NCBI GenBank assembly: GCA_028699255.1
Contig: JAQVUX010000006.1
Coordinates: 25,928 to 89,927 of the forward strand
DNA length: 64,000 bases
Reading direction: 5' to 3'
Source of the DNA: Candidatus Omnitrophota bacterium
GTDB lineage: Bacteria > Omnitrophota > Gorgyraeia > 2-01-FULL-45-10
The translations under genes and the position numbers were made by a program. Positions within the stretch are counted from its first letter, which is position 1. Each line of letters opens with the position of its first letter. Below are positions 1-19,758 of this stretch, in pieces. Under the pieces are notes generated by a model. That model was not told the DNA's origin. It saw only the letters and a list, made by a program, of their open reading frames with translations, and did not search any database.

Positions 1-2633
1 TCTTCCTCGGAATGTCCATTTTTAAAACTCATCGATATTATGAATGCGATATGTTCTGTTAATGTCTTCCAGCTACCACTATAAAGATATGTCTTGCCTC
101 TATCGAGTGCTTCTCCGAATGGCTCTTCTGATGTAGCATCTATTATATAATGATAAATTTTCCCAAAAGCTATTTCAGCATTCGGCATAGTATCAATCAA
201 TGTTCCGTCCAAATCAAAGAAAGCGACTTTAGGCTTAGGATTAATAGATGAATTCGCTATATGGAATTCGTCCTTCGACGGTCTGGGTAGGTCGACTTCC
301 GGTATCTCTTTGTATTCCCAGAAAACATCGGTTACATGATATGAACCGTTTAAAAATTCTATCCTTCCTTCATTTTGAAAACTCTTTAATGCCTCGTTTA
401 ATTTTTCTATCTCAAGCTCCGTATTGAATAAGTTGGCAATCTTATTTTTTATATCTTCCACCAAAAAATGTTTTTCAGCAAAATATGTTCTTATCATTTC
501 TCTAGCAATGCTTCTGTATGCAATCCTCTCAAGATGTTTTGCATCAATAGTTATGTCGCCGCTTTTGATATAGGAAAGTGCCCCTAAAATATCCTTTACA
601 AGTCTTTCACTATATTTACCAGCAACAGTATTCATTTGGTATTCGGTTTCGCAACGCACCATATCTTCTAGATAATCTAGCAGAATCACTGTTTGTTCGG
701 CCATTATCTTTTTTAAGATTCCTCTTTCCTTGTCAGATGTTTCTCCAAATTTTGACGACCGGAATATTATTTTCAGAACCCAAAAAAACATCTGTTGGCT
801 TTCTTCCCAATCTTTTATACTAGACAAGACTTGAACAACTTGCGAATTTTCATAAACGTATTCATAAGATAATGCGTTAGGGTCATATTCATTTGGGTCA
901 ACAAGACCTTTTTCTATTAGTTGCGAAGTATAGCTTGCTCCTCTTAATGGAATATATGATTTGATGGGATAAGTAATTCTTTTGTCCATTCCTGTTTCTC
1001 GAAGAAAAGCGATGCTTTCTCGTAGTTCTTGTAAAGTTACAAGTGGGTCAAACATAATAAAACCGGGAACATTATGAATTCCAAGCCCTTCGATTATCTC
1101 AAGGGCTTTTTTATTCTCAAAAACGGTGGCCGCTTTTCCATAACGTTTCAATTGGGATGGTGAACCTGATTCAATACCAATAAAGAGAACAGATAATCCT
1201 GCTTCTTTGAGTTTCTTAAATGCCTCGACTCTTTTATTGTTATTTTCTTCTGAATCACCTGCTTTATAAACTAACCGTGTGCTCGCCGAGGTGCCAAATG
1301 TAAGGTCGGCGGGAATTCTGCCAGACTTTTTGAGTGCAATTATTCTATCCGCCAATTCGACTACTCTCTCAACGCCTCCAGCAAACAGGTCTTCGTCGAC
1401 AAAATTTACGAAACGTCCACCATGGTCGCAAACCACTACTAAGTCATTTATCACATCGTCTATCGCACGACCTCGCCATCCCCCCTTACCTAAAAAAGGT
1501 TTTCTGGCGCATATCGCACAATTAAAAGGACATTCTCGGCTGGTTTCCATAAAAACTGCTCCGCCACTATCTATGGTATAAGACAATACATCTCTTTGCG
1601 GAACTCCTGCATTTACGAGATTGGTCTTCATAGACGAATTAACTGTTATTTGACCATTGTGCATATACGCAATATTAGGAACGTCGGGAAGTGAAACTTC
1701 GCCTTTAAAATATCTTACTGTTTGCTTTATTGCTTCCTCTCCTTCTCCTTTACACACGATCACTTCTGGATATTTAGTTAACAATAGGTCTGCATTATAT
1801 GTGGCGAGCACATTGCCTAGTATTATTAAAGGTCTTTCTCTCGATGGCAAAGATTTCAAATAATCCATAATTTTTGCAAGGTCGTCTAAGGTATTAAAAA
1901 ATAAAGATAATCCCACTATATCCGGTTTCTCTTTTCTTAATCTAGCTATTATTCCTTCGGTGCCATTTTCAATAACATGGTGAATCGTTGAAATTTCCAC
2001 GGAATTTTTGAATTGTTTTTTCAACACACCCGACAGGGTAGATACAGCCAGTGGCTCATCTACCTTCGATTCGTCCCTAATTTTACTCATCCAGCATAAC
2101 GCAACTTTGACAGTTCGCTTAAAAGGTGCTCTACGCATAACCGGCTCATTAGATGAGCTATATGCGGGAAGTGCTGTTATTCTATGAATAATCTGTCTGT
2201 GTAATCGTGGAGCAATTATTTTAGTTTGGAGTTTTGAAATATCGGAATAAGGCGTTATAACATTGGTTTTAGTTGGGTCAAAATAGCGAACAGCTAATTC
2301 TTCATTCGGAATTTCAATTACAATTTCATACGGTAATACGGTTATATTGGAGTTTTTTTCTGCATCTAATCGTGCTAATACATCGTTTAGATATGATTTA
2401 TCATCAAGGTTACCATCATGTTCGACATGCTTGCATATTGCGGTTACCGTAAGCGAATATTTAAAGTCTTCGCTATTAAGTCTTGATTCAGGGGCTAATT
2501 TATTGTTATCGACTGGGTAGGAAGAAAAAGACTTATTTTCAATCGCAGTAGAAAACAGTCTCGCTTCCTTAGCCCAGCCAAAAGTGCCTGTAAACAAAAA
2601 GACCCATAGTAGAATAACCGTAAGGGTCTTCAT
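1..2633 (-). CDS. Partial CDS (C-terminus lies beyond the window start). Signal peptide, then a B12-binding radical SAM domain, then a C-terminal HAD-like hydrolase domain.
   Basis: Manual reverse-complement translation from ATG at 2633 gives MKTLTVILLWVFLFTGTFGWA (a possible alternative ATG at 2660 was not resolved). Then ETSRECPFNCAIC, the class-B radical SAM CxxxCxxC motif, near 1500-1550. Then KVAFFDLDGTLIDT, HAD motif I, near 200-240. No minus-strand ORF is listed in the track for 1-2650, consistent with an open frame running off the window edge. Confidence 0.6.
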   Translation of the reverse strand, partial: MKTLTVILLWVFLFTGTFGWAKEARLFSTAIENKSFSSYPVDNNKLAPESRLNSEDFKYSLTVTAICKHVEHDGNLDDKSYLNDVLARLDAEKNSNITVLPYEIVIEIPNEELAVRYFDPTKTNVITPYSDISKLQTKIIAPRLHRQIIHRITALPAYSSSNEPVMRRAPFKRTVKVALCWMSKIRDESKVDEPLAVSTLSGVLKKQFKNSVEISTIHHVIENGTEGIIARLRKEKPDIVGLSLFFNTLDDLAKIMDYLKSLPSRERPLIILGNVLATYNADLLLTKYPEVIVCKGEGEEAIKQTVRYFKGEVSLPDVPNIAYMHNGQITVNSSMKTNLVNAGVPQRDVLSYTIDSGGAVFMETSRECPFNCAICARKPFLGKGGWRGRAIDDVINDLVVVCDHGGRFVNFVDEDLFAGGVERVVELADRIIALKKSGRIPADLTFGTSASTRLVYKAGDSEENNNKRVEAFKKLKEAGLSVLFIGIESGSPSQLKRYGKAATVFENKKALEIIEGLGIHNVPGFIMFDPLVTLQELRESIAFLRETGMDKRITYPIKSYIPLRGASYTSQLIEKGLVDPNEYDPNALSYEYVYENSQVVQVLSSIKDWEESQQMFFWVLKIIFRSSKFGETSDKERGILKKIMAEQTVILLDYLEDMVRCETEYQMNTVAGKYSERLVKDILGALSYIKSGDITIDAKHLERIAYRSIAREMIRTYFAEKHFLVEDIKNKIANLFNTELEIEKLNEALKSFQNEGRIEFLNGSYHVTDVFWEYKEIPEVDLPRPSKDEFHIANSSINPKPKVAFFDLDGTLIDTMPNAEIAFGKIYHYIIDATSEEPFGEALDRGKTYLYSGSWKTLTEHIAFIISMSFKNGHSEE

Positions 2634-2960
2634 AAGTATCACACTGTTATTTTTTAGCATTGGTTTAGTCGTAATGACCTATAAATAAAAAGTGACTGAA
2701 TTAACTAGTATTTAGCACTAGGCAATCCAGCCATCTAATAAATAAAATATTACTAGACCTGCGATTTTGCGCCCCTATGTCACCATAGGTTTGCCTTTAT
2801 CTAGAATATTGTATATTAAGTATAGCATAGAATATAGTTAAGTCAATAGAAAGTAACAACCTTTTTGAATTACTAACCTTGATGAGTGGTGGTTATTTTC
2901 TCAGTGTCCATCCAGTGACTATAGCACGTCAAAATACGTCCTATTCCGTCATAATTCATA

Positions 2961-2995
2961 CAAAAACAAAAGGACGCTCGAATATGAGCATCCTC
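2961..2995 (-). terminator. Intrinsic terminator downstream of gyrA: GGACGCTC / GAGCaTCC hairpin followed by a T-rich tract on the minus strand.
   Basis: Hairpin at 2971-2995; an A-run at 2961-2970 gives a U-tract on the minus-strand RNA. Confidence 0.4.
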
Positions 2996-3056
2996 TTGTT
3001 TTACGGCAAGTTACGCTTGTTTTATGTTGATTTTATCAACAGATTTTAAATCGCTA

Positions 3057-5675
3057 TTACTTTTTCCGTTTTATCGACTTCTTCTTCGCTTCGCTCTTGG
3101 GTGGCGCAACCTTTTCTTTGGGCGCAGTTTTCTTTTCTTCAGTCGGAGTCGTCTCGGGTTTCGCCTCTTCGAGCTTTTCTTTCACGGGAACAGGCGCGGC
3201 TGTAACCGTAGCCGCGTTTACAACTGCCGCGGCCGGAGCGGTTTCGCTTTCGTCTTCGGGAACTATCTTAGCGACCGACGCGACTTTATCCGCCGCATCC
3301 AGACGCATAAGCCTCACGCCCTGCGTCGAGCGCCCGGTAGTGCGTATATCTTTTATCGGACAACGAACGATCATGCCTTTTTCCGTCATAAGCATTATCT
3401 CGTCCTTGTCGGAAACTGTCGTAAGGCTCACGGCCTCGCCGTTCTTGCCTGTCACCTTCATATTTATAATACCTTTACCGCCCCGGGATTGCAAACGATA
3501 TTCTTTGAAGGGTGTCCGCTTCCCGAAACCCTGTCCGCTGACAGTAAGTACCGTCTGCTCGGGCTTGACTATTTCCATGGCGATACATGCGTCTTTTTTG
3601 CCGAGCGTTATACCTTTGACGCCTTTGGCGGCCCGGCCCATATCGCGAACCTGCGCTTCTTTGAACCGTATGGCTTTGCCCTCTTTGGTAGCGAGCAATA
3701 TCTCGTCGTCGCCGTTCGTCATCTCGACTTCGATAAGTGCGTCGTCTTTCTCGAGGCCGATACCTATAATGCCGCCCTTCCTCGGGTTGGAATATGCGGT
3801 AAGTGCCGTCTTCTTGATGAGCCCGTTCTTCGTGGCCATGATAAGGAAGTGCCCGTCTTTAAACTCTCTCACCGGCACAAACGCGCTTATATTCTCCCCC
3901 TGGGCTAACGCGAGCATGTTAACTATAGCTTTGCCTTTGGACGTCCTGCCGCCCTCGGGTATCTCGTGGACTTTCAGCCAGTGAATGTTACCTTTGTCCG
4001 TAAAGAACAGCATATAGTCGTGGGTCGATGCTATAAAGAGGTGCTCGACAAAATCTTCCTCTTTCATATCGGCGCCTGTAACGCCCTTGCCGCCCCGATG
4101 CTGTTTTTTGTAACTGGACACGGGCAGTCTCTTGATGTATCCCGAATGGCTTATCGTTATGACGACATCCTCTTCGGCGATCAGGTCTTCGATATCGAGC
4201 TCTTCAGCTTCGGGCGCTATCTCCGTCCTTCTCTCGTCGCCGATTTTTTCGGCCAATTCTTTCGTCTCTTCTTTTATTATCTCGAGAACCTTCCGCTCGC
4301 TGGCAAGAATAGATTTTAAAAACTCTATTCTTTTTATGAGCTCGAGATATTCTTTCTCTATCTTGTCACGCTCGAGGCCGGTCAGGCGCTGTAACTGCAT
4401 CTCGAGTATCGCGGTCGCCTGTTTTTCCGACAGATCGAACTTCTTTATAAGCTCTATCTTCGCCGCCTGCGGGCTCTCGGACTCTTTTATGACCTTTATG
4501 ATCCTGTCGAGATTTTTCAGCGCTATCTTTAATCCCTCGAGGATGTGCGCCCTGTCCTGGGCCTTGGCCAGCTCGAATTTCGTCCTTCTTACTATTATGA
4601 CCTTGCGGTGTTTTATGAATTCATCGAGGATCTCTTTTAAGTTTAAAACCTTGGGCCTGCCGCCGACGAGCGCCAGCATAATAACGCCGAAGGTCTCCTG
4701 CATCTGCGTATGTTTGTACAGTTGATTTAACACGACGTGCGCGTTGATGCCGCGCTTCAGTTCTATGACTATGCGCATCCCGTCCTTATCCGACTCGTCC
4801 CGTAGATCGGAAATGCCCTCTATCTTTTTATCCTGTATCAGATCCGCTATCGATTTGATGAGATTCGCTTTATTAACGAGGTACGGTATCTCTTTGACGA
4901 TGATGGCTTCTTTGCCGTTTTTCTGCTCTTCAATAAACGCCTTCGCGTTTATTTTAAGCCGCCCGCGTCCGGTCGTATAAGCGCTTTTTATACCGTCGTA
5001 GCCGCGGATTATCCCTCCCGTCGGGAAATCGGGCCCCTTCACCTTCTTTAAAAGATCTTTCGGTTCGCAATCGGGGTTGTCTATCACAAAGATGATCGCA
5101 TCGGCTATTTCTCTCAAATTATGCGGGGGGATGTTCGTCGCCATGCCGACGGCTATGCCGCTCGACCCGTTGACTAAAAGATTCGGCAGGCACGCCGGAA
5201 GAAGCGCCGGCTCCTGGAGCGACCCGTCGAAGTTAGGGACAAAATCCACCGTATCTTTTTCTATGTCGAGTAGCATCCAATCCGTTATGCGCTCGAGCCT
5301 GGCTTCCGTGTACCTCATGGCGGCCGCTGAATCTCCGTCGATCGAACCGAAATTTCCCTGGCCGTCGACTAAAGGATAACGCAGTGAGAAATCCTGCGCC
5401 ATGCGCACAAGAGTATCGTAAACCGCGCTGTCTCCATGCGGGTGATATTTACCTAATACCTCTCCTGTGATCCTCGCGCATTTTTTATACGGCTTATTGT
5501 GCTCGAGTGAAAGCTCTTTCATCGCGTAAAGGATCCTGCGGTGGACGGGCTTCAACCCGTCGCGCACATCGGGCAGGGCGCGGCCTACGATGACCGACAT
5601 CGCGTAATTAATATAGGAATCCTTCATCTCTTCTTCTATGTATCGCGTGATTACTTTTTCATTCCGTGTGTACAT
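3057..5675 (-). CDS. gyrA: DNA gyrase subunit A
   Basis: 872 aa; N-terminus [30 protein letters not shown]; GyrA beta-pinwheel repeats present; lysine-rich C-terminal tail. Confidence 0.95.
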
Positions 5676-5695: not shown

Positions 5696-8466
<2,771 letters not shown>

Positions 8467-9739: not shown

Positions 9740-11113
9740 CTATTCTTTAATACTTTGGATAACCCTGTCGATTATAGCCCTAAAACCAGGCTTATCCTTC
9801 AACTCTCTCTCGATCTTTTCACACGCGTGTATTACGGTGGTGTGATCCCTGCCGCCAAACTGGTCGCCTATCTCCGGAAGCGAAAAATCCGTTAACTGCC
9901 TTACCAGATACATCGCGATCTGGCGGGGATACGCGATCGCCTTGCTTCTCTTCTTCGCGCGCATGTCGGAAAGTTTTATATCGAAATATTCGCTGACTTT
10001 TTTCTGAATAAGATCTATGGTTATTTTCTTCTCACCCTCTATTATCATGTCTTTTAAGACCTCTTTCGCGAGATCTACGGAAACTTCTTTACCTATAAGT
10101 TTCGCGTAAGCGACAACTCTTATCAACGCGCCTTCAAGCTCCCTAATATTGGTTTTTATTTTTTCGGCCAGGAAATAAAATACATCCTCACTGAGCGCGA
10201 TCGTCTCTTTTTCAGATTTCTTTTTTATTATCGCGATACGTGTTTCGAAGTCGGGCGGCTGTACATCGACGACGATGCCGTATAAAAAACGCGAGACGAG
10301 CCGTTCCTCGAGATGCTGTATCTCCTTCGGAGGGCGGTCGCTTGTCACGACTATCTGTTTGTGCGCGTCGTATAGCGCGTTAAATGTGTGAAAGAACTCT
10401 TCCTGCGTCGACTCTTTGCCGGCTATGAATTGTATATCATCTATCAGGAGAATGTCAACACTGCGGTACTTTTCGCGGAATTTCTGCGTCGAGCGGTTCT
10501 GTATCGCGCTTATAAGCTGATTCGTGAACTCTTCACTGGATAAGTAGAGTATCTTTGATTTTGGCGCTTTATGCAGAGCGCTGTGGCCGATCGCGTGCAT
10601 AAGGTGTGTTTTGCCGAGGCCGACACCGCCGTATATAAAAAGCGGGTTGTATGCTTTTGCCGGAGATTCGGAGACGGCCACCGACGCCGCGTGAGCGAAC
10701 CTGTTGCTTGGGCCTATCACGAAACTTTCGAACGTGTACTTTGGATTTAAACCAACTTCTTTTGCGACATCCTGCGTCTGCCGGCTGAACGGCCAGAAAG
10801 GTTTTGCTTCTTTTTTCTCAACCTCCGCCCTTATCCTCTTTAAGGCATCCTCGCCGATCTCTTCACTAAACGAAAACTCTATCTTCAGATCCCTGCCCGC
10901 GGTTTTCTGCAGGCTCTCTCTTAATAATGGCATATAGTGTTCTACGATCCAGCCCTGGAAAAATTTATTAGGGACCTCAAGGACTATAGTTTCGTTCGAC
11001 AAAGAAACATGTTTTATCGGAACGAACCATATATTATAAGCCTGGTCATTCCCAAGCACCTGCTTTATTATCTCTTTGGCCTGTGTCCAGACCACATCGG
11101 TTTCTATCGGCAT
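9740..11113 (-). CDS. dnaA: Chromosomal replication initiator DnaA
   Basis: 457 aa; AAA+ motif GGVGLGKTHLMHAIG; C-terminal DnaA-box-binding domain. Confidence 0.95.
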   Translation of the reverse strand: MPIETDVVWTQAKEIIKQVLGNDQAYNIWFVPIKHVSLSNETIVLEVPNKFFQGWIVEHYMPLLRESLQKTAGRDLKIEFSFSEEIGEDALKRIRAEVEKKEAKPFWPFSRQTQDVAKEVGLNPKYTFESFVIGPSNRFAHAASVAVSESPAKAYNPLFIYGGVGLGKTHLMHAIGHSALHKAPKSKILYLSSEEFTNQLISAIQNRSTQKFREKYRSVDILLIDDIQFIAGKESTQEEFFHTFNALYDAHKQIVVTSDRPPKEIQHLEERLVSRFLYGIVVDVQPPDFETRIAIIKKKSEKETIALSEDVFYFLAEKIKTNIRELEGALIRVVAYAKLIGKEVSVDLAKEVLKDMIIEGEKKITIDLIQKKVSEYFDIKLSDMRAKKRSKAIAYPRQIAMYLVRQLTDFSLPEIGDQFGGRDHTTVIHACEKIERELKDKPGFRAIIDRVIQSIKE

Positions 11114-11124
11114 TAAGCTCCCTT

Positions 11125-11345
11125 TTAAAGGTTATCCACAGCCCCACAAGCACGTTTTCAACACAAAAATTAGAGTTATGCACAAGTTGTGCACAAAACA
11201 CCCTGCGCGCGGGGCGGCATAAAAACCAGATTTTAATTATAATGAATGGAATAACATTTTGCAACACAAAAATTCTTTTTCTTTTTAGCCTTGACTGAGA
11301 ATCGTATTATGATATAATTACACTACGAAAATTTTCCACATAATG
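11125..11345. promoter_or_regulatory. DnaA-box cluster (candidate oriC / dnaA autoregulatory region) plus the rpmH promoter
   Basis: TTATCCACA at 11132-11140 (perfect), TTATGCACA at 11176-11184, TTGTGCACA at 11186-11194, TTTTCCACA at 11332-11340. AT-rich 11225-11330. TTGACT-N16-TATAAT at 11291-11318 upstream of rpmH. Confidence 0.55.
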
Positions 11346-11356
11346 AAGGGAGAGTT

Positions 11357-11494
11357 ATGAAGCTTAATTTAAGATGTAAGTCAAACCTGAAGCGGAAGAG
11401 AAAACACGGTTTCAGAAAACGCATGAAGAGCCGCAACGGCAGGACGGTCTTAAAAAGACGCAGACAGAAGGGCCGCCATAAGCTCGCCGTATGA
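11357..11494 (+). CDS. rpmH: 50S ribosomal protein L34
   Basis: Manual translation [45 protein letters not shown]. This ORF is below the track's length cutoff. Confidence 0.9.
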
Positions 11495-11850
11495 TCCCCG
11501 ACGAGAAATTCCGGAAAAAAGAACATCTTTTAAAATCAAAAGACTTCTTTAAGGTATACAAAAAAGGCATTTCGTATAAAGCGGGCGGGGTTATATTGTA
11601 CGTGCTCGCGAATGCTCTCGGGCATAATCGTCTCGGTTTCTCGATAGGGTCCAAAGCGATCAAGCGCTCTACGGTTCGGAACAGGATACGCAGATTATTC
11701 CGGGAAGCCTATAGAAAAAATAAAGGCGCTCTTAAGGCCGGGTTTGATATGGTTATAGTGGCCAGAAAAATGCCGGAAAACATAACTACATATGTTTCTG
11801 CAGAGGACGTATTGCTAAAACTCACCGCTGGCACAAGGCTTAAAACATGA
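11491..11850 (+). CDS. rnpA: RNase P protein component
   Basis: 119 aa basic protein; ATGA overlap with the rpmH stop; conserved rpmH-rnpA order. Confidence 0.85.
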
Positions 11851-12053
11851 AAAAGATAGCTATTCTGGCATTAAAGTTTTACCGTAAGTATTTGTCAATA
11901 TTAATGTTACAGCACTGCAGGTTCTACCCATCCTGTTCACAATACGCAATAGACGCGATAGAGAAAGACGGATTTTCAAAAGGAATATTTAAAAGCATCT
12001 GGCGTATTCTTCGGTGTAACCCTTTTTCAAAAGGCGGGTATGACCCCGCATAA
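11847..12053 (+). CDS. yidD: Membrane protein insertion efficiency factor YidD
   Basis: 68 aa; YPSCSQYAIDAIEKDGFSKG motif. Confidence 0.85.
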   Translation: MKKIAILALKFYRKYLSILMLQHCRFYPSCSQYAIDAIEKDGFSKGIFKSIWRILRCNPFSKGGYDPA

Positions 12054-12070
12054 TAAAGGATAAAAATATC

Positions 12071-13666
12071 ATGGAAAAACGGCTGATAATTGCAATCGCT
12101 TTATCGATCCTCATCATAGTAGGGTTCCAATATTTTACAGTTAAACCCACCCGCCCATCATCGTCGGCGCCGCTTACCGGACAGGCCGCCCAGGCTTCCT
12201 CCGCCAAAGCGCCTGCGATAGTGCCTATAGCCGAGCCCGCGAAATTGCCCGATGAGAAAGAGCTGGAAGCTCTGACCGGGAAATACGCGCTTACCTTCAG
12301 TAATATAGGCGGCTCGATAAAGAGTATAAAGCTCAAAGACTATAATGAGGCCAACTCTAAAGAACCGTACTGTCTCTCCCAGGCATCCAATCCAAAAGAA
12401 TACCTTTTTAATATAAGCGATCTATCGGGTAGCCAAAATTTTGATCTTGTCGAATACAAGGCAAAGACAGACGGCTTAACCATAACATACGTCTTAACCA
12501 CCAAAGATTATGAGATACGTAAGAAATATATTTTACGTAACTCAAGTTATGGCATTGACTTAGAATTATCGGTAAAGAATATATCTGTCTCACCAAAAGG
12601 ATTTAATTATAGCATTGTCGGTGGCTCCGGCGTTACCGAGAAAGCCAAGCAAGACGCGATATCTATCGAAGTAGCTTCGAAAATTGATGGAAAATCAGTT
12701 AAATTCAAACGGCCAAAGATAGGTGAGCGCGTGATGAGCGTAGGCATGGTAGGCTGGTCAGCCCTTAAAAATAAATATTTTTGCATCATCTTAAAGCCTT
12801 TTACCCAGACACGCGGCGCTTTTTATTACGAAGGTTCAGACGGCACACTTGTAACGGGCGTAGATTCTGAAAAAATCGTTATCGAGCCAGGCGCCAGTAT
12901 CGAGAATAAATATGCGTTATATGCCGGGCCAAGCAGTATACCGGTTCTGAAAGAATTCGGCTATGGTGTCGAGGAATCGGTAAATTACGGCATATTCGGC
13001 GGGATCAGTAAGGCACTAATCGTGGTTCTTAAAGGTTGCCATTCCGTCGTACGGAACTGGGGACTTTCCATAATACTTTTATCGCTTGTGCTAAACGTGA
13101 TCCTATTCCCTCTCACCGCAAAGAGTTTCAAGTCGATGCAAAAGATGCAGGAGTTGCATCCTCAAATGGAGAAGCTGAAAGTTCAATTTAAAGACCAGCC
13201 ACAGAAGCTTAATCAAGAGATAATGGGATTGTATAAAAAATACAATATCAATCCATTCAGCGGTTGCCTGCCCATACTTTTGCAGATGCCGATATTCATA
13301 GCTTTGTATCAGGCATTGATGAAATCTATAGAGTTGCGCGGCGCCGGGTTTTTATGGATACGGGATCTTTCATCGACGGAGGCAGTTTCTATCCCATTCT
13401 CTTTCCCGATAATCGGCAATTCTATAAACATACTGCCGCTTATTATGGTGGCCGCTATGGTAGTCCAGCAAAAGATGTCTATGTCATCTTCCGGTGCCGC
13501 TGTTTCTGAAGAGCAGAAACAACAGCAAAAGATAATGCTTATCATGATGCCGATAATGTTCGGATTCATATTCTATAATATGCCTTCCGGGCTCGTTTTG
13601 TACTGGGTAGTCAATACAGTACTTACCATAGGCGAACAAGCGATTATTTTGCGCCGCACTGTTTAG
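12071..13666 (+). CDS. yidC: Membrane protein insertase YidC
   Basis: 531 aa; N-terminal TM helix, periplasmic domain, C-terminal 5-TM core. Confidence 0.9.
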   Translation: MEKRLIIAIALSILIIVGFQYFTVKPTRPSSSAPLTGQAAQASSAKAPAIVPIAEPAKLPDEKELEALTGKYALTFSNIGGSIKSIKLKDYNEANSKEPYCLSQASNPKEYLFNISDLSGSQNFDLVEYKAKTDGLTITYVLTTKDYEIRKKYILRNSSYGIDLELSVKNISVSPKGFNYSIVGGSGVTEKAKQDAISIEVASKIDGKSVKFKRPKIGERVMSVGMVGWSALKNKYFCIILKPFTQTRGAFYYEGSDGTLVTGVDSEKIVIEPGASIENKYALYAGPSSIPVLKEFGYGVEESVNYGIFGGISKALIVVLKGCHSVVRNWGLSIILLSLVLNVILFPLTAKSFKSMQKMQELHPQMEKLKVQFKDQPQKLNQEIMGLYKKYNINPFSGCLPILLQMPIFIALYQALMKSIELRGAGFLWIRDLSSTEAVSIPFSFPIIGNSINILPLIMVAAMVVQQKMSMSSSGAAVSEEQKQQQKIMLIMMPIMFGFIFYNMPSGLVLYWVVNTVLTIGEQAIILRRTV

Positions 13667-13724
13667 TTGCGTCTTGACAATTTACGATTTATAGGGTATA
13701 GTTTAAGCATAAATTCTGGGAAAA

Positions 13725-13740
13725 TGTTCTTCGTGGAACA
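13725..13740. promoter_or_regulatory. Degenerate parS-like site TGTTCTTCGTGGAACA just upstream of parA
   Basis: Right half GTGGAACA matches 7/8 of GTGAAACA; left half matches 5/8. Confidence 0.3.
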
Positions 13741-13749
13741 CTCTAAGAA

Positions 13750-14604
13750 ATGGCGAAAATAATAGCGATTTGCAATCAAAAAGGCGGCGTAGGAAAGACA
13801 ACTACGGCTATAAACCTGTCGGTTTATCTCGCCCTGTCGGATAAAAAAGTTCTCCTTATAGATATCGACCCACAAGGTAATGCCACAAGCGGATTAGGCA
13901 TAAACAAACATAATATCAAAACCAGTATCTACGATCTTGTAATCCACGAGATAGACCCGCATAGCGTTATAATAGGAACTGGAATTAATAACCTCTCCCT
14001 TATCCCATCCACAATAGCATTAACCGGAGCGGAGGTAGAGCTCGTCGGTATTATGGGCCGCGAATACCGTCTGAAAAAGGCCCTCTCCCCCATTTCCATA
14101 GAATATGATTTCATTATAATGGACTGCCCCCCATCTCTCGGATTACTGACTGTAAATGCCCTTTCTGCCGCAGGTTCGGTGCTTATACCGATCCAGTGCG
14201 AATATTATGCGCTGGAAGGTTTAAGCCAATTAGTCAACACCATAAATCTCGTTAAGGAAAACTTAAACGCTACCTTAGAGGTTGAGGGCGTTTTGTTGAC
14301 GATGGCGGACTTCAGGACTAACCTTACAAATGAAGTTATCAAGGAAGTGCGCAACTTCTTTAAAGAAAAGGTTTATAATACTGTAATACCAAGAAATATC
14401 AGGCTAACCGAAGCTCCTGGTTTTGGAAAACCAATCGCGCTTTATGATAAGAATTCTATCGGTGCGCAAAAATACCATGATTTTATGGGAGAATTATTAG
14501 GAGCAAAAAAAGATATCTCCAAAGATTTCGAAACAAAAAAACTCGATAACTCCAATAATGAAAATGAGTTAGAAAAAATAAATGAAGGAGATGTTAAGTC
14601 ATGA
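13750..14604 (+). CDS. parA: Chromosome partitioning ATPase ParA/Soj
   Basis: KGGVGKTT deviant Walker A; 284 aa. Confidence 0.85.
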   Translation: MAKIIAICNQKGGVGKTTTAINLSVYLALSDKKVLLIDIDPQGNATSGLGINKHNIKTSIYDLVIHEIDPHSVIIGTGINNLSLIPSTIALTGAEVELVGIMGREYRLKKALSPISIEYDFIIMDCPPSLGLLTVNALSAAGSVLIPIQCEYYALEGLSQLVNTINLVKENLNATLEVEGVLLTMADFRTNLTNEVIKEVRNFFKEKVYNTVIPRNIRLTEAPGFGKPIALYDKNSIGAQKYHDFMGELLGAKKDISKDFETKKLDNSNNENELEKINEGDVKS

Positions 14605-15458
14605 CAAGCAAAGCATTAGGTAAAGGTTTAAGTGCGCTTATACCAACGCGAGATGATTCACAAGAGAATAGAGAGTCAGTATTAAGAATACCAATATCTA
14701 AAATTAGAATAAACAAATACCAACCACGCTTGGAGTTTAATAAAGAAAAGTTAGATGAGCTTACCAGCTCTATAAAAGAGAAGGGTGTCGTTCAACCGGT
14801 ACTGGTTAGAGCGTCACAGGACGGGTATGAGCTTATCGCAGGTGAAAGACGGCTCAGGGCGGTTACCAATTTGGGAATGGAGTCTATACCGGCCATCGTG
14901 AAAAATGTCGCGGATATCGACATGCTGGAGTTGTCGCTTATCGAGAATATACAGCGCGAAGAGTTAAATCCGATGGAAGAAGCGTCAGCTTTTCAGAAAT
15001 TTATAACAGATTTTAATTTTACGCAGGAAAGAATAGCCACAGCTGTCGGGAAAGACCGTTCTACCGTAGCGAACACACTACGATTATTAACGCTTCCTAA
15101 AAAAATACAGGATTTTATATCCAAGGGCAGTATCACAGCCGGGCACGCGAAAGCCATACTCTCTGTCCCGACGGAGAATGACCGTCTCAGGGTCTGCAAT
15201 CTTGTGGTGAAGAAGGGGCTTTCGGTAAGGGAGACAGAGGCTTTGGCCGCGCGCAGAGCCGCAGGGGAAACGGAAGAGGCGAAAGTACGTGAAAAAGACC
15301 AGGACATCGCCGACCTCGAGAATAAATTACAGCAGTTTTTCGGTACAAAAGTGAAGATATTCCACGGAAATAAGAGGGGGCGCATACAGATAGAGTATTA
15401 TTCGACCGAGGACTTGAACCGCATACTCGAACTTTTTTCCCCGAAGCCGCAAGTTTAA
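14601..15458 (+). CDS. parB: Chromosome partitioning protein ParB/Spo0J
   Basis: GERRLRA ParB box; helix-turn-helix; overlaps the parA stop. Confidence 0.85.
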   Translation: MTSKALGKGLSALIPTRDDSQENRESVLRIPISKIRINKYQPRLEFNKEKLDELTSSIKEKGVVQPVLVRASQDGYELIAGERRLRAVTNLGMESIPAIVKNVADIDMLELSLIENIQREELNPMEEASAFQKFITDFNFTQERIATAVGKDRSTVANTLRLLTLPKKIQDFISKGSITAGHAKAILSVPTENDRLRVCNLVVKKGLSVRETEALAARRAAGETEEAKVREKDQDIADLENKLQQFFGTKVKIFHGNKRGRIQIEYYSTEDLNRILELFSPKPQV

Positions 15459-15463
15459 TCTTC

Positions 15464-15492
15464 TTGACGTAAAAGAGATTAATCATTACAAT
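15464..15492 (+). promoter_or_regulatory. Sigma-70-like promoter TTGACG-N17-TACAAT upstream of ndk, followed by a ~130-nt GC-rich leader
   Basis: TTGACG at 15464-15469, TACAAT at 15487-15492. Confidence 0.35.
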
Positions 15493-15622
15493 ATATTACC
15501 TTATCCCGCCACGATGCATTCTGGGCTTTACCCGCGGGCAGATGGGGCGGGATTTGCTTCAGGCGAAAGAAGTCTGCCGGGGTTTTTAGCCGGGGAGCTT
15601 CATAATATAAAGGAGTGGGCTT

Positions 15623-16123
15623 ATGATCCAGCAGACGCTTGTTCTTATAAAGCCGGACGGATTAAAAAAATCCCTTACAGGGAACATCCTTACGCGATTA
15701 TCGGAGACAAAGCTCGATATAATTGCCACCAAGATAGTTAAGGTTTCCAAAGAGCTTGCGGCGGAGCACTACAGGGAACTCAAAGATAAACCATTCTTCA
15801 ATGATCTTTTAAAATATCTCATGGGTGAATATCATAAAAAGAAGGTTATGGCACTGGTGTATTGGGGCGAGGACGCGATAGATAAAGTGCGCAAGGTATG
15901 CGGCTCGACGAATCCGGAAGAAGCCGATGCCGTATCCATACGCGGGGCGTACGGCAGGATCACCACCAAGGGTGTATATGAGAACGTTATTCACGCGTCG
16001 GCAAATCCGAAGGACGCCGAACGGGAAATAAAACTGTGGTTTTCGCCCGACGAGATACTGGAAACGCCGTATCCGACGAAGACGATAAAAGCGTCCGGCG
16101 AAAAGAAAGTGTGGCAGGAATAA
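15623..16123 (+). CDS. ndk: Nucleoside diphosphate kinase (with a C-terminal extension)
   Basis: LVLIKPDG and NVIHAS active-site region; 166 aa. Confidence 0.75.
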   Translation: MIQQTLVLIKPDGLKKSLTGNILTRLSETKLDIIATKIVKVSKELAAEHYRELKDKPFFNDLLKYLMGEYHKKKVMALVYWGEDAIDKVRKVCGSTNPEEADAVSIRGAYGRITTKGVYENVIHASANPKDAEREIKLWFSPDEILETPYPTKTIKASGEKKVWQE

Positions 16124-16125
16124 TC

Positions 16126-17004
16126 ATGATTAAATCTATGACAGGGTTTGGTAAAGGCGAGGCGCGTTTTAAAACCGGCAAAGTTGTGGTCGAGATCAAG
16201 ACGGTAAATCATAAATTTCTCGAAGCGACGCTTAAATTACCGACGGGGCTCACAGCGCTCGAAGATAAGATAAAAGAGGTTTTACAGAAGAAGCTGAAGA
16301 GGGGAAAGGTGTACCTCAACCTTACGCACGATGGATCGCTTTTAAAAGGCGAGAGGATATCGATAAACAGGAAGGCCGCGCGAAATTATTATAATGAGCT
16401 CGCCGGGCTTGGGAAATATCTCGGGTTGAAAGAAGAAGTAAGCATGAAAGAGATCCTGGCCCTGCCGGGAGTGATAAATTTCGACGCCTTAGATCGCGGC
16501 ATTGAGGAATTCTGGCCAAAGACGAAAAAGGCTCTCGATATGGCGATAGAGAAACTCGTTATCGACAGGCAAAAAGAGGGGAAGGCGCTCTACCTGGATC
16601 TCACCGGCCGTACGAAAAAAATCGCCTCGATGCTTGCTACTATAAGAAGCCGCGCGCATCTCAATATAGAAGAGTACAGGAAGAGATTTGCCGACAGGGT
16701 CAAGGATCTTACCGGCGGACGCGATATAGATATGGGCCGCCTCGAGATGGAGGTTGCGATTTTCGCTAAAAATAGCGATATATCCGAAGAGATAACCCGG
16801 CTCGAGAACCATCTTTCCAATTTCAACAAGACGATAGCCTGCGACGGAGAGGTAGGCAAAAAGATCGATTTTATCGCCCAGGAACTCCATCGCGAAATAA
16901 ATACCATCGGTTCGAAAGCGAGCGATTTCAAGATAGCCAAAAACGTCATAGAGATAAAAGGCGAAATAGAGAAGATACGCGAACAGGCCAAAAATCTAGA
17001 ATGA
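16126..17004 (+). CDS. yicC: YicC-family stress-induced protein
   Basis: MIKSMTGFGKGE start with RBS GGAA; the track ORF from 16036 is a spurious upstream extension that overlaps ndk. Confidence 0.8.
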   Translation: MIKSMTGFGKGEARFKTGKVVVEIKTVNHKFLEATLKLPTGLTALEDKIKEVLQKKLKRGKVYLNLTHDGSLLKGERISINRKAARNYYNELAGLGKYLGLKEEVSMKEILALPGVINFDALDRGIEEFWPKTKKALDMAIEKLVIDRQKEGKALYLDLTGRTKKIASMLATIRSRAHLNIEEYRKRFADRVKDLTGGRDIDMGRLEMEVAIFAKNSDISEEITRLENHLSNFNKTIACDGEVGKKIDFIAQELHREINTIGSKASDFKIAKNVIEIKGEIEKIREQAKNLE

Positions 17005-17573
17005 ACGCGCGCATATTCGTGATATCCGCCCCGTCGGGAAGCGGTAAGACCACTTTATGCAATAAGCTTTTAAAGGACGGCCCGGCGCTGGAAAATTCCA
17101 TATCCATGACGACGCGCCCACCGCGTCCCGGAGAAAAAGACGGCGTCGATTACCGGTTCGTATCCGAAAAATATTTCCGGGCCTCCATAAAAAAGGACGC
17201 ATTCCTCGAATACGAAGAGAACTTCGGGAATTTTTACGGTACGCCGAAAGATTTTGTAGAAGATAACCTCAGAAAAGGCAGGAGCGTTCTTTTAAGCATC
17301 GATGTAAAAGGCGCAATGAAAGTAAAGAAGCAGTTTCCGGCGAAGAGCGTGCTTATATTCATAATGCCGCCTTCGATCGCAGTGCTCGAAAAGAGATTGC
17401 GGTTGAGAAAGTCCGAGGATGACGACGCCATTTCGCGGCGGCTTTCGCTCGCAAGAGAGGAGATGGCGTATAAAGACAAGTACGACTATATCATAGTAAA
17501 TGACCGGCTCGACGCCGCGTATGAAAAATTAAAAGAAGTCGTGGTTTCGGAACTAAAAACTGAAGGAGTATAG
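17001..17573 (+). CDS. gmk: Guanylate kinase
   Basis: SAPSGSGKTT P-loop; yicC-gmk-rpoZ synteny. Confidence 0.9.
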   Translation: MNARIFVISAPSGSGKTTLCNKLLKDGPALENSISMTTRPPRPGEKDGVDYRFVSEKYFRASIKKDAFLEYEENFGNFYGTPKDFVEDNLRKGRSVLLSIDVKGAMKVKKQFPAKSVLIFIMPPSIAVLEKRLRLRKSEDDDAISRRLSLAREEMAYKDKYDYIIVNDRLDAAYEKLKEVVVSELKTEGV

Positions 17574-17577
17574 CTAT

Positions 17578-17781
17578 ATGCCAGAGATAGACATACAGAA
17601 ATTATTGAATAAAGTCGGCAGTTTATATAAACTCGTTGTCCTGACTTCATTAAGGGCTGTGGAACTCGGGGATCCTTCGGCGAACTTCTCCGGCGGCAAA
17701 ACGGATACCAAAACGATAAACGCGGCATTAAAAGAGATCGCCGACGGCAAAATCGAGTATAAAATTAAAGAGAAAAAATGA
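17578..17781 (+). CDS. rpoZ: RNA polymerase omega subunit
   Basis: 67 aa; LVVLTSLRAVEL motif. Confidence 0.8.
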   Translation: MPEIDIQKLLNKVGSLYKLVVLTSLRAVELGDPSANFSGGKTDTKTINAALKEIADGKIEYKIKEKK

Positions 17782-18323
17782 TCAAGAAGACCGGCCCGGT
17801 GGTACTGGGCGTTACAGGCAGTATTGCGGCATACCGCTCGTGCGAGATCATAAGCGCTCTCCGTAAAGAAGGCGTGGAAGTACAGCCCGTATTGACTAAA
17901 GAGGGTGCCGAGTTCATAACGCCTTTGTCCCTGCAGACCTTAGCGCGCAACAAGGTCGCGATGGGCATGTTCGAGACCCCGGAGAAGTGGGAGCCGGTGC
18001 ATACCGCGATAGCGGACAGGGCGGGCCTTATACTGATAGCGCCCGCGACGGCAAACGTGATAGGTAAGCTCGCCAACGGCATATGTGACGACTTGCTTAC
18101 CTGTATCGTATTTGCGACGAACGCGCCCGTTTTGATAGCGCCGGCCATGAATGAGAAGATGTATGAGCACAAGATAGTGCGCGAGAATATAGCAAAGCTT
18201 AAGGCGATCGGTTATAAGTTCGTCGGCCCGTCGAAGGGGCGGCTGGCATGCGGCCACGTAGGCACAGGCCATATCGCCGATACAAAGGAGATAGTAAAAG
18301 AGGCTGTAAGGCTTCTGAAGTGA
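17778..18323 (+). CDS. coaC: Phosphopantothenoylcysteine decarboxylase (flavoprotein CoaC domain, a separate ORF here)
   Basis: 181 aa flavoprotein fold (VLGVTGSIAAY); ends in a TGA that overlaps the coaB ATG. Confidence 0.8.
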   Translation: MIKKTGPVVLGVTGSIAAYRSCEIISALRKEGVEVQPVLTKEGAEFITPLSLQTLARNKVAMGMFETPEKWEPVHTAIADRAGLILIAPATANVIGKLANGICDDLLTCIVFATNAPVLIAPAMNEKMYEHKIVRENIAKLKAIGYKFVGPSKGRLACGHVGTGHIADTKEIVKEAVRLLK

Positions 18324-19551: not shown

Positions 19552-19626
19552 GGCGCGGTAGCCAAGCGGTAAGGCAGTTGTCTGCAAAACAACTATACAG
19601 CGGTTCAATTCCGCTCCGCGCCTCCA
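19552..19626 (+). tRNA. tRNA-Cys (GCA)
   Basis: Cloverleaf read by eye; anticodon loop CTGCAAA; 3' CCA encoded. Confidence 0.85.
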
Positions 19627-19758
19627 AATTTGCCGTAGTTTAAATGTAGGCAAATTGCTCCGAAGCCTATCCGAAAAATATCGAAGAGATTTTTCGGATG
19701 TTTAGGCGAGGAGCTGATCAGTGTTTGTTCTTAAGGTGCTCTTCAGAGAAATTTTCAA

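Follow-up and report, generated by a model that had tools for sequence, protein, structure and literature searches.

Why would an open reading frame that encodes a B12-binding region and a radical SAM (rSAM) motif begin like a secreted protein, and what would such a protein do with the HAD phosphatase motif that follows? Radical SAM and cobalamin enzymes are considered to be confined to the cytoplasm. The question is raised by a gene at the edge of a 64-kb window (the whole stretch of "Candidatus Omnitrophota" DNA analyzed, 64,000 nt). The answer that we favor, with a probability of only about 0.4, is that the gene belongs to a family of cyclic dinucleotide-induced, Sec-targeted carriers whose enzyme cargo can be swapped.

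Signal peptide-like, radical SAM, and HAD segments share one reading frame

The frame lies on the minus strand, is free of stops over 877 codons (translated from 2633 to 1), and leaves the window at its start. A first-pass annotation had read into it a signal peptide, a B12-binding region, a radical SAM motif, and HAD motif I, and all of these strings are present: MKTLTVILLWVFLFTGTFGWA is aa 1 to 21 (2571-2633), ETSRECPFNCAIC is aa 363 to 375 (1509-1547), and FFDLDGTLIDT is aa 805 to 815 (189-221). Its three-part list of domains was correct as to the parts named but left out a conserved N-terminal domain (the N-core) and an extension of ~245 aa that follows the radical SAM domain (Table 1). 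The start had been placed at ATG 2633; the in-frame ATG 2660 is the more likely one, since P0132 (1,337 aa; locus L028), a database copy of the protein, begins there. P0132 is a 9-aa-longer copy of P0001 (1,328 aa), the full-length protein of a "Ca. Omnitrophota" MAG, and the window covers the 5' two-thirds of the 1,337-aa gene. Paralogues have MTKP... starts one codon block upstream of ATG 2660, where the window has ACG in place of ATG. Completion of the C terminus from P0001 supplied the missing part of the HAD domain as well as a conserved C-terminal module of 240 aa (the C-module). The gene is flanked by gyrA upstream and by a nucleotidyltransferase pair and an AAA_14 ATPase gene downstream; no secretion system genes were found among these neighbors, and tblastn revealed no paralogues elsewhere in the 64-kb window.

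Table 1. Coordinates of features of the gene and its leader in the window
Feature	Position	Strand	Basis
Promoter-like site, TTGACT-16 nt-(TG)TATACT	2819..2846	-	Consensus match alone, 10/12 plus TG extension
c-di-GMP-I class (GEMM-I) riboswitch aptamer; best model, RF03167 c-di-GMP-I-GGC	2717..2804	-	Covariance model
Intrinsic terminator: hairpin (2694-2732) and U-tract (2681-2692)	2681..2732	-	MFE fold
Start codon (ATG 2660, alternative 2633) and Sec-type signal peptide-like segment MLKNNSVILMKTLTVILLWVFLFTGTFGWA/KE	2571..2660	-	Composition rules
Low-complexity linker ahead of N-core	2505-2570	-	
N-core, conserved domain of unknown function (aa 44-157)	2163..2504	-	Conservation
OxsB-like cobalamin-dependent radical SAM core (aa 172-788)	270..2120	-	Pfam, OxsB alignment
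B12-binding domain	1725-2051	-	Pfam
Radical SAM domain	1002-1547, CX3CX2C at 1509-1532	-	Pfam
C-terminal extension of radical SAM core, ending ...IPEVDLPRP	270-1001	-	
HAD-IA phosphatase, first 76 residues; remainder past window start	3..230; motif I DLDGT within 189-221	-	Pfam fragment

The enzyme core resembles OxsB

Pfam placed a B12-binding domain (PF02310) at aa 195 to 303 (42.5 bits versus a cutoff of 32.1) and a Radical_SAM domain (PF04055) at aa 363 to 544 (45.5 bits versus 29.5), and the three-Cys [4Fe-4S] motif CPFNCAIC (CX3CX2C) lies at aa 368 to 375. To judge by sequence, this motif and the Rossmann-like domain N-terminal to the radical SAM domain would make the protein a class B (cobalamin-dependent) radical SAM enzyme. 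It was not assigned to any of the curated subfamilies (HpnR, PhpK, the MCR Gln C-methyltransferase, and BchE), for which the best NCBIfam scores were 50 to 80 bits versus cutoffs of 251 to 700. The nearest solved homologue is OxsB of oxetanocin A biosynthesis in Bacillus megaterium (PDB 5UL2; chain 5ul2_A, E = 7.3e-38, 133.5 bits), followed at a distance by the next PDB match (E = 1.5e-9); core residues 24 to 377 align with OxsB residues 138 to 497, which span its Cbl and radical SAM domains (~355 residues). The HAD fragment in the window (~76 aa) scored 21.6 bits, under the cutoff of 26.4. The full domain on P0001 was matched by PF00702 (63.8 bits, aa 802 to 1013) and PF13419 (54.3 bits) and includes a motif IV-like FGDSDGD; searched against NCBIfam, it gave weak phosphoglycolate phosphatase-like matches, all of them under their cutoffs, and reached no equivalog cutoff.

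The substrates of OxsB are dAMP/dADP/dATP, and it needs a phosphohydrolase, OxsA, as its partner (PMC9204698). The activity that defines OxsB is a ring contraction of 2'-deoxyadenosine phosphates. The two systems share a Cbl-binding Rossmann domain and a radical SAM domain, followed by a C-terminal region, and in both the core is paired with a phosphohydrolase. The partner of OxsB is a separate HD domain protein, whereas the partner here is a HAD domain fused in cis, and no HD domain was found in the full protein. Moreover, the cluster motif of OxsB is longer by one residue in the alignment, the N-terminal domain I of OxsB is unmatched here, and the present protein adds a signal peptide and two conserved domains. 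The analogy makes plausible one half of an earlier proposal, that a methyltransferase and a phosphatase act as a pair on a phosphorylated substrate; the methyltransferase half is not indicated, as OxsB is a non-methylating enzyme and no methylase model came near its cutoff. We propose that the pair would work on a phosphorylated nucleoside or sugar, with radical C-H chemistry by the radical SAM core and then dephosphorylation by the HAD domain, an order suggested by the parallel with OxsB and OxsA.

Conserved ends enclose interchangeable enzymes

The radical SAM cassette (~615 aa) recurs at 45 to 51% identity in P0002 to P0008, with other flanking modules or none. What stays constant is the pair of domains on either side of the cargo enzymes, the N-core (~115 aa) and the C-module (~240 aa). 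The N-core is 59 to 81% identical among proteins with unrelated middles, the matches being limited to the first ~165 aa, and the last ~240 aa are conserved to an equal degree around unrelated middles. A profile of the C-module gathered ~226 cluster representatives (1.84 billion proteins searched); the module ends at most 5 residues from the C terminus in 164 of 168 proteins, and the final residue is nearly always Ala. The N-core was found in 82 of 271 proteins scanned and, in the 3,751-aa protein P0140, directly precedes the C-module. The two domains belong together.

Neither domain had a Pfam, NCBIfam, or PDB match, and Foldseek searches of PDB with the constant domains gave nothing informative (E >= 0.12); what we infer of their role is therefore purely that. 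The AF2 model of the N-core (pLDDT 64 to 81) has two helices and five strands. A full-length model of P0022 (pTM 0.41) was too poor for N-C contact to be judged, and its Foldseek search was uninformative. Among 81 members, the invariant or near-invariant residues of the N-core are R116, Y117, E71, Q147, P109, and C67. A Cys-His autoprocessing protease (CPD- or C39-like) was considered for the N-core and rejected, as there is no invariant Cys-His pair: of 75 aligned members, 71 have Cys67 and 3 have Ala or Arg in its place, and His150 is less than 80% conserved.

The cargo is diverse, with 54 Pfam families across 34 members. It includes methyltransferases, kinases, G6P isomerase, UDP-GlcNAc 2-epimerase, nucleotidyl transferase, Fic, NAD-epimerase, deaminase plus PHP, GH130-like, LpxC, GT5, and GT35, and a MafB19-like deaminase is among the types. 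Every cargo type needs cytoplasmic cofactors (Fe-S, SAM, B12, ATP, NAD, or nucleotide sugars), and the cargo is mostly metabolic (sugar-phosphate and nucleotide-sugar enzymes) rather than toxic. The 27 genome loci all come from Omnitrophota MAGs, some of them titled "uncultured Planctomycetia," at no more than 3 copies per genome. This is a lineage-restricted family of modular carrier proteins, in which the rSAM-HAD pair is one of many interchangeable cargoes and not the organizing principle.

Searching for orthologs and their neighborhoods, as advised in the first-pass annotation, brought this family to light but yielded no operon partner: in an all-versus-all ORF comparison of 28 loci, no neighbor was common to the close subfamily. 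The distant loci share a large downstream signal peptide protein without a Pfam match. In L001, L030, and L032, tRNA genes lie directly upstream.

Cassette-like exchange of middles between conserved ends recalls classical polymorphic toxins or effectors, in which a constant trafficking region would serve swappable toxic enzymes (Fic, deaminase, PHP, rSAM) directed against competitors, with cognate immunity genes. The Fic, MafB19-like deaminase, and PHP cargo would suit such a family, as would the GC content of the gene (37%, below the 46% of the window; most close paralogues are likewise poorer in GC than their flanks), the tRNA genes upstream of three loci, and chromosomal positions that differ between related genomes (L002 versus the window). 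However, the variable part is central and the C terminus is the most conserved part, there is no small downstream "immunity" ORF conserved across the loci, most of the cargo is metabolic, and no Rhs/YD, PAAR, LXG, MuF, or other known trafficking domain was found. We therefore consider a toxin family quite improbable.

A GEMM-I riboswitch and a terminator precede the gene

The leader upstream of the gene (2681-2846), an element beyond those listed in the first pass, contains a promoter-like site, a riboswitch aptamer, and a terminator. Both the -35 and the extended -10 hexamers are kept in the leaders of L029, L030, L031, L032, L035, and L036. The 88-nt aptamer, which lies 57 nt ahead of ATG 2660, matched positions 1 to 80 of RF03167 with 62.6 bits, above the gathering score (59 bits; E, 1e-14 to 2e-12). 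A scan of the 64-kb window revealed no other riboswitch, and neither a cobalamin nor a SAM riboswitch was found upstream of the gene. Five paralogues that carry other cargo have near-identical aptamers (92% mean column identity) 27 to 45 nt upstream; 4 of 11 close paralogues and every distant family locus lack the riboswitch. In this paralogous gene family, a 5' block from about -180 to +480, comprising the leader and the 5' coding region, is conserved at the DNA level.

The terminator folds with an MFE of -43 kcal/mol (z, -3.75) into a hairpin of 10 plus 6 bp, followed by CUUUUUAUUUAU, and the 5' arm of the hairpin is the 3' end of the aptamer (16 nt in common). In a comparison of 5 distinct leaders, every cell (100%) of the 10-bp outer stem is paired; four terminator-stem pairs vary on one side (G-U to G-C or A-U) and none varies on both. 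The terminator is an expression platform coupled to the aptamer, and ligand binding would prevent its formation, which would make the element an ON switch. With other GEMM-I riboswitches (Rfam clan CL00126; RF01051, RF03167), it shares a full-length match above the gathering score, a position in a 5' leader on the coding strand, and a terminator that competes with the aptamer; it differs from them in that copies 92% identical to one another are matched best in some cases by the canonical model and in others by the "GGC" variant, so that ligand specificity is uncertain. GEMM-I elements usually control genes for surface, adhesion, pilus, and secreted proteins. The constant frame of the family is thus a sigma70-like promoter, a GEMM-I riboswitch with an overlapping terminator, a signal peptide, the N-core, variable enzymes, and the C-module.

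The N terminus looks like a Sec signal peptide

The N-terminal segment consists of a positive n-region (MLKNNSVILMK), an 11-aa hydrophobic core (LTVILLWVFLF), and a c-region ending in G-W-A (TGTFGWA, followed by K). This corresponds to the rule-based description of a Sec (SPase I) signal: a positive n-region, an h-region of 7 to 15 residues, and a polar c-region with small residues at -3 and -1. Tat and lipoprotein signals (RR in the n-region and L-x-x-C at the c-region) were absent from P0001 and its close paralogues; the 1,328-aa protein has no further TM segments, and across the family such segments are almost absent beyond the N terminus. The n/h/c layout occurs in 95 family members, with a median hydrophobic core of 11 aa; the flank charge (N, +3.4 net; C, -0.9) follows the same pattern in 92 of these, and small-x-small follows the core in 73. 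Judged by such rules, the segment is a putative Sec-type signal peptide. Its joining to a cobalamin-dependent radical SAM enzyme and a HAD domain, described as unusual in the first pass, is real. The frame contains no stop, and the segment does not look like a cytoplasm-facing anchor, the two points at which that reading might have failed.

Could this be an ordinary cytoplasmic rSAM-HAD fusion, its hydrophobic N terminus being a matter of gene calling or chance? P0007 ("Ca. Termititenax"), a stand-alone homologue of the radical SAM core without an obvious signal peptide, would fit such an explanation. In contrast, P0002 to P0006, Omnitrophota carriers of the same core, also begin with signal peptide-like segments, the segment type is kept in 95 of 120 full-length members while its sequence varies, and it stands between a conserved leader and a conserved domain. 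We regard this explanation as very improbable indeed.

A weightier possibility is a membrane-tethered, cytoplasmic glycan-tailoring enzyme. The N terminus would be an uncleaved tether with the bulk of the protein in the cytoplasm, the N-core and C-module would dock enzymes on a polysaccharide synthesis-export machine, and c-di-GMP would turn on the tailoring of a precursor of exopolysaccharide or envelope glycan, with rSAM chemistry on a sugar phosphate or nucleotide sugar and then dephosphorylation by the HAD domain. Exopolysaccharide production is a classical response to c-di-GMP, and the cargo, in which sugar-phosphate and nucleotide-sugar enzymes dominate, needs cytoplasmic cofactors and substrates. 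The same window also has a Wzx/Wzy-type cluster (Wza-like, Wzc-like, GT4s, Wzy) holding a B12-rSAM gene (46393-47871) and a gene whose product joins a radical SAM domain to a flippase-like membrane protein (54686-57343), which indicates that this genome uses rSAM chemistry on glycans at the membrane. The accessible text of a 2026 preprint weighs a tether-like topology for about half of the long Omnitrophota proteins (10.64898/2026.06.07.730766). However, a hydrophobic core of ~11 residues is too short to cross a bilayer, a tether would need the orientation opposite to the N-in/C-out one predicted from the flank charges (92 of 95 proteins), and small-x-small follows the core in 73 of 95. Furthermore, the cluster lies 44 kb from the gene, and family genes in other genomes are at unrelated positions. 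A tethered enzyme is doubtful in our view, with a real chance nonetheless of being correct.

A proposed mechanism for an exported carrier

We tentatively prefer the inducible, Sec-targeted carrier with exchangeable cargo. A rise in the cyclic dinucleotide, for example in attached or sessile cells, would lead the aptamer to fold, which would block the terminator and permit transcription. The signal peptide would then direct the protein through the cytoplasmic membrane, and the N-core and C-module would perform a step common to the whole family, be it export, anchoring, assembly, or hand-over. Where the cargo acts is the least certain step; since all cargo types need cytoplasmic cofactors, the cytoplasm of another cell, prey or host, is the most likely site, in agreement with proposals made for the giant "Archaeovorin" proteins of the phylum. 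Sec export hands over unfolded, cofactor-free protein, and we know of no route by which [4Fe-4S] or cobalamin is loaded outside the cytoplasm, nor, to our knowledge, is there any earlier case of a radical SAM enzyme being exported. Counting against an export carrier, much of the cargo (G6P isomerase, UDP-GlcNAc 2-epimerase, nucleotidyl transferase, kinases, and LpxC) resembles ordinary glycan-precursor metabolism, the neighbors of the gene include no secretion system genes, and part of the family lacks the riboswitch.

A bolder version, which we think unlikely, is that the N-core and C-module form a delivery device. An ultrasmall, host-dependent or predatory bacterium would, on a cyclic dinucleotide cue, export interchangeable cofactor-dependent enzymes into the cytoplasm of prey or host, where they would acquire their cofactors and rewire nucleotide and sugar metabolism. 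If true, it would add a new effector-carrier architecture and the first case of a radical SAM enzyme exported as an effector.

The recurrence of one gene frame with varied enzymes in related Omnitrophota suggests a previously undescribed deployment of enzymes at or beyond the cell envelope. The family puts radical SAM enzymes, kinases, NAD-dependent epimerases, and SAM methyltransferases behind textbook-like signal peptides, with several members under a riboswitch of the cyclic dinucleotide class. Its tractable items are two unannotated domains, an OxsB-like enzyme fused to a phosphatase, and an aptamer of 88 nt coupled to a simple, putatively ON-type platform.

Comparison with giant proteins and other modular systems

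As described in the accessible text of two preprints, giant proteins of Omnitrophota carry Radical_SAM, HAD_2, and methyltransferase domains along with signal peptides or TM segments, are linked to c-di-GMP parts (GGDEF, PilZ), and are proposed to act on prey (bioRxiv 10.1101/2023.11.21.568195; 10.64898/2026.06.07.730766). On the same text, these "Archaeovorins" (West-Roberts et al. 2023; 2026 complete-genome preprint) share with the present family the phylum, signal peptides or TM segments on cytoplasm-type enzymes, the c-di-GMP link, and the resulting topology paradox. The protein described here does not belong among them, having only domain types and phylum in common: at 1,328 to 1,337 aa, it is of 1.3 kaa and not tens of kaa, and it has neither a T2SS-like locus upstream nor pilZ downstream. 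It has defined constant N- and C-domains and a riboswitch leader, none of which was matched by a term search of the available text of those two preprints. The family can be viewed as a small, tractable version (0.7 to 2 kaa, defined modules, an RNA switch) of the Omnitrophota giant-protein puzzle.

In logic, the family also resembles cellulosomal enzymes (signal peptide, catalytic domain, and dockerin), the CWB2 proteins of C. difficile, and MARTX toxins, all of which combine constant noncatalytic modules with varying enzymes; like MARTX, it has its variable part between conserved ends. Its constant domains resemble neither dockerin nor CWB2, RTX repeats, or a cysteine protease domain in sequence, and no significant fold match links them to any of these. 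Those systems deploy hydrolases or classical toxins, whereas the cargo here consists of cofactor-dependent enzymes of the cytoplasmic type.

Reading frame and full-length protein

Translation of the minus strand from 2633 to 1 gave 877 codons with zero stops, so the focal frame is open as the first-pass annotation had it, and the three strings quoted there were all recovered, at aa 1 to 21, 363 to 375, and 805 to 815. The B12-binding and Radical_SAM domains exceeded their Pfam cut-offs (see the table); the part of the HAD domain within the window fell under its cut-off (21.6 versus 26.4 bits), and the complete domain was found on the full-length protein (PF00702, 63.8 bits, aa 802 to 1013). 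That protein, P0001 (1,328 aa; NCBI MDD3906027.1), is an identical database entry from a 154-kb contig of a "Candidatus Omnitrophica bacterium" MAG. The focal gene is the only one of its family in the window, which lacks its final 451 codons. Another database entry, P0132, has 9 additional residues and begins at the in-frame ATG at 2660; paralogues start (MTKP...) slightly upstream, where the focal gene has ACG in place of ATG, and for both reasons 2660 is, judged from sequence, the likely start.

The neighbors gyrA, gyrB, dnaN, and dnaA lie on the strand of the focal gene. Downstream, on the 9.5-kb contig carrying P0132 (L028), are a nucleotidyltransferase gene (NTP_transf_2/Polbeta) and a 136-aa ORF, which may form a toxin-antitoxin pair, and an AAA_14/DUF4143 ATPase gene; a similar ATPase gene adjoins the family gene at L029. 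No gene resembling a pathway partner was found among the neighbors on the upstream side in the window or on the downstream side in L028. GC content is 37.4% in the focal gene (window 1 to 2660), 46.1% across the window, and 50.9% in gyrA, and most close paralogues lie 3 to 12 GC points under their flanks, which hints at a separate history of the family.

Features of the window and of other family loci, with coordinates where available
Feature	Sequence	Position	Strand	Evidence or context
B12-binding domain	Focal protein	aa 195-303	-	Pfam, 42.5 bits, exceeds cut-off
Radical_SAM domain	Focal protein	aa 363-544	-	Pfam, 45.5 bits, exceeds cut-off
Predicted terminator hairpin, 10+6 bp, then U-tract	Window	2694-2732		Minimum-energy fold of leader, z -3.75
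c-di-GMP-I clan riboswitch	Window	2717-2804	- (coding)	RF03167, full-length, 62.6 bits (gathering 59)
Promoter-like TTGACT-16-TGnTATACT	Window	2819-2846		Consensus match just upstream of aptamer
Weak second GEMM-I-like match	Window	2958-3035	-	RF03168 c-di-GMP-I-UAU, 21.7 bits, E 0.05; between gyrA stop and promoter-like site
gyrA	Window	3057-5675	-	Neighbor
gyrB	Window	5696-8140	-	Neighbor
Candidate replication-origin region	Window	11114-12070		~950-bp gap between divergent dnaA (9740-11113, -) and yidC (12071-13666, +)
Three-tRNA cluster	Window	19552-20089	+	
6S RNA	Window	26234-26393	+	72.3 bits
TolC-like gene	Window	40083-41399		
FemAB-like gene	Window	41710-42867		
Wzx/Wzy polysaccharide cluster	Window	44185-59725		Wza-like and Wzc-like proteins, GT4s, GT2, Wzy, phosphodiesterase, sugar transferase
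Stand-alone B12-rSAM	Window	46393-47871		In Wzx/Wzy cluster
rSAM-flippase fusion, 885 aa	Window	54686-57343	-	In Wzx/Wzy cluster; N-terminal radical SAM domain, Polysacc_synt_3 (Wzx-like flippase) membrane domain
tRNA	Window	59857-59930	+	Adjoins 1,097-aa KAP-family P-loop NTPase (60207-63500, +)
Aptamer before P0015	L029			
Aptamer before P0020	L030			P0020 middle: Fic cargo
Aptamer before P0010	L031			P0010 middle: GH130-like
Aptamer before P0016	L035			P0016 middle: methyltransferase, cytidine deaminase, PHP
Aptamer before P0022	L038			P0022 middle: CheB methylesterase
P0019 middle				Radical SAM, NAD-epimerase/dehydratase
c-di-GMP-I-GGC riboswitch	L023	10400-10511		63.2 bits; precedes ORF at 10641-18519
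tRNA directly upstream of family gene	L001	5712-5782		
tRNA directly upstream of family gene	L030	3491-3563		
tRNA directly upstream of family gene	L032	259-330		
AAA_14/DUF4143 ATPase	L028	7933-9093		Downstream of family gene
AAA_14/DUF4143 ATPase	L029	4515-5666		Upstream of family gene
Large downstream signal-peptide protein	L010	12489-16280		
Large downstream signal-peptide protein	L021	10939-15333		
Large downstream signal-peptide protein	L012	3002-8257		Also at L016, L018, L006, L026

An OxsB-like radical SAM core fused to a HAD domain

Residues 172 to 788 form a cassette that recurs elsewhere at 45 to 51% identity, in a Ca. Termititenax protein without extra modules and in Omnitrophota proteins P0002 to P0006, which have other signal-peptide-bearing frames. 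In P0003 to P0006, it sits within a third architecture, with a signal peptide, a different ~350- to 450-aa N-terminal domain (..FRPLHLR..LLLDKGD..WVNLSPY..), and a different C-terminal domain. Among solved structures, OxsB is by far the closest relative (5UL2; E 7.3e-38; alignment across the Cbl and rSAM domains). OxsB, a radical SAM enzyme dependent on cobalamin, carries out ring contraction on the deoxyribose of dAMP, dADP, or dATP and has the HD-domain phosphohydrolase OxsA as its partner (PMC9204698). Sequence places the focal core among the OxsB-like class B radical SAM enzymes, and the fused HAD is an ordinary HAD-IA domain. Because no curated methylase model came near its cut-off on the focal cargo, the methyltransferase activity proposed in the first-pass annotation is not the default reading. 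The fusion of the HAD-IA domain to the OxsB-like core suggests, by analogy, that the substrate may be a phosphorylated nucleoside or sugar that is dephosphorylated after the radical chemistry.

A constant frame surrounds unrelated middles

A homology search returned, as an unexpected class, ~25 proteins with 59 to 81% identity to the query across just ~18% of its length, namely, the first ~165 aa, in which a short linker joins the signal-like segment to a ~115-aa conserved domain (N-core). The last ~240 aa of P0001 (C-module) are also common to these proteins (43 to 83% identity), and the middles are unrelated. A C-module profile search against 1.84 billion representatives retrieved 226 proteins of 200 to 4,420 aa, counts that rest on clustered metagenomic proteins, many of which are fragments. 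The module ended no more than 5 residues from the C terminus in 164 of 168 proteins examined, and the final residue was nearly always Ala (AA, n = 97; RA, n = 25). Among 120 apparently full-length members, 95 had an N-terminal hydrophobic segment, hardly any had a second TM-like segment, and 75 had the N-core (68 of these with a start before residue 120). P0010 (761 aa) and P0012 (754 aa) keep the N-core and lack a recognizable C-module. Both nevertheless finish with ...LAEILTAA, preceded by a helical stretch that resembles the last helix of the C-module; the essential functional element may be the tail at the very C terminus.

When 34 further members were scanned with Pfam, their cargo spanned 54 families, including radical SAM, B12-binding, deaminases, methyltransferases, HAD, PHP, UDP-GlcNAc 2-epimerase, EPSP-synthase-like, G6P isomerase, nucleotidyl transferase, and APH kinase; genome loci also carry LpxC, GT5-like, and GT35-like cargo. 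In P0140 (3,751 aa), sugar-phosphate enzymes occupy ~3,300 aa between a signal-like N terminus and the N-core, and the C-module comes directly behind the N-core. The two modules can thus adjoin each other, and from this adjacency we infer that they probably act together. Neither matched anything in Pfam, NCBIfam, or PDB sequences.

Scanning one genome per species gave 27 family loci with at most 3 copies per genome, and among the scanned genomes the family is restricted to Omnitrophota MAGs, some of them titled "uncultured Planctomycetia." At L002, the family gene comes after a FemAB-like gene, as it also does at L033, and lies between homologues of the FemAB-like and TolC-like genes that adjoin in the window, with a further ~6 kb before the TolC-like homologue. 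This arrangement, together with the tRNA genes upstream of family genes in three unrelated loci, indicates that the chromosomal position is variable and possibly island-like. Distant family loci have a common downstream gene for a large (1,100- to 1,750-aa) signal-peptide protein with no Pfam match and with conserved N-terminal (..LDVxTFTLPxHLG..IHIQDAH..) and C-terminal (..ITRVNWxEI..) regions of its own, a second "bookend" family.

A riboswitch and terminator in the leader

The 420-bp gap behind gyrA contains the leader elements of the focal gene, a promoter-like site, an aptamer, and a terminator hairpin, and the aptamer is the only riboswitch identified in the 64-kb window. Since the 3' end of the aptamer doubles as the 5' arm of the hairpin, aptamer and hairpin are predicted from the fold to be mutually exclusive, which implies an ON switch. 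The weak second match may be the remnant of a tandem aptamer or a product of chance.

In the contigs compared, five close paralogues (see the table) carry the same aptamer (92% mean column identity) 27 to 45 nt ahead of the start codon; in other close paralogues, it is split by an ~80-nt insertion at L032, its core is lost with the promoter kept at L036, and it is absent at L033, L034, and L037. At the DNA level, the paralogues become conserved abruptly at about -180 and remain so to about +480, where the N-core ends. The outer stem of the terminator was paired in 5 of 5 distinct leaders, with one-sided pairing-preserving changes in 4 pairs and a two-sided change in 0; because the changes are one-sided only, the structure is compatible with the alignment, and covariation falls short of proof. 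Distant family loci had no such riboswitch at the gathering level. In Ca. Tantalella remota (L023), a related riboswitch stands before a different ORF, which has a signal-like N terminus, extends for at least 2,626 aa, and runs off the locus; large signal-peptide proteins of the phylum may commonly be under GEMM-I control.

A signal-peptide-type N terminus and the location of the cargo

Across the 95 members with an N-terminal segment, the strongly hydrophobic core had a median of 11 residues (IQR, 10 to 12) and the uncharged span a median of 19, with a net charge of +3.4 over the 15 residues before the span and -0.9 over the 15 after it. The N side was more positive than the C side in 92 of 95 members, and a small-x-small motif stood at the span end in 73. 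Between subfamilies, the sequence varies and the layout is kept; neither a twin-arginine motif nor a lipobox was present in the segment. By these rules, the segment matches cleavable Sec signal peptides in its n/h/c layout (...TGTFGWA/KE in the focal gene), in agreement with the signal segment claimed earlier for the rSAM-HAD protein; a membrane-spanning anchor does not fit the pattern, and a chance N terminus is very improbable.

Export poses a difficulty, since cofactors of the cytoplasm are required by every cargo type. Two preprints on Omnitrophota giant proteins present the same paradox: signal peptides or TM segments precede Radical_SAM, HAD_2, and methyltransferase domains. They also note GGDEF and PilZ ties to c-di-GMP and propose that the proteins act on prey cells (10.1101/2023.11.21.568195; 10.64898/2026.06.07.730766). 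In view of this difficulty and its recurrence there, we rank first, at a probability of about 0.42, an exported carrier whose cargo would be active in the cytoplasm of another cell. A membrane-tethered cytoplasmic glycan-tailoring enzyme would suit the sugar-nucleotide flavor of the cargo and the Wzx/Wzy cluster in the window, with its B12-rSAM and rSAM-flippase fusion; against it stand the shortness of the hydrophobic core and the asymmetric charge of the N-terminal segment, and this reading ranks second, somewhat less likely than the exported carrier. That these are classical polymorphic toxins seems improbable. For the exported carrier, a cyclic dinucleotide would induce expression via the riboswitch, Sec would translocate the protein, and the N-core and C-module would share a role in export, anchoring, or hand-over.

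Comparison with known systems

The frame of signal peptide, N-core, swappable cargo, strictly C-terminal Ala-ending module, and shared riboswitch leader was not described in the Pfam and NCBIfam libraries or in the passages of the two preprints reached by term searches. The focal RNA is a member of the known GEMM-I clan. Within the phylum, the focal protein is a miniature likeness of an Archaeovorin but falls outside the size and neighborhood limits of that group. The architecture has no homology with cellulosome dockerins, CWB2 proteins, or MARTX, but it resembles all three in joining a constant targeting module to variable enzymes.
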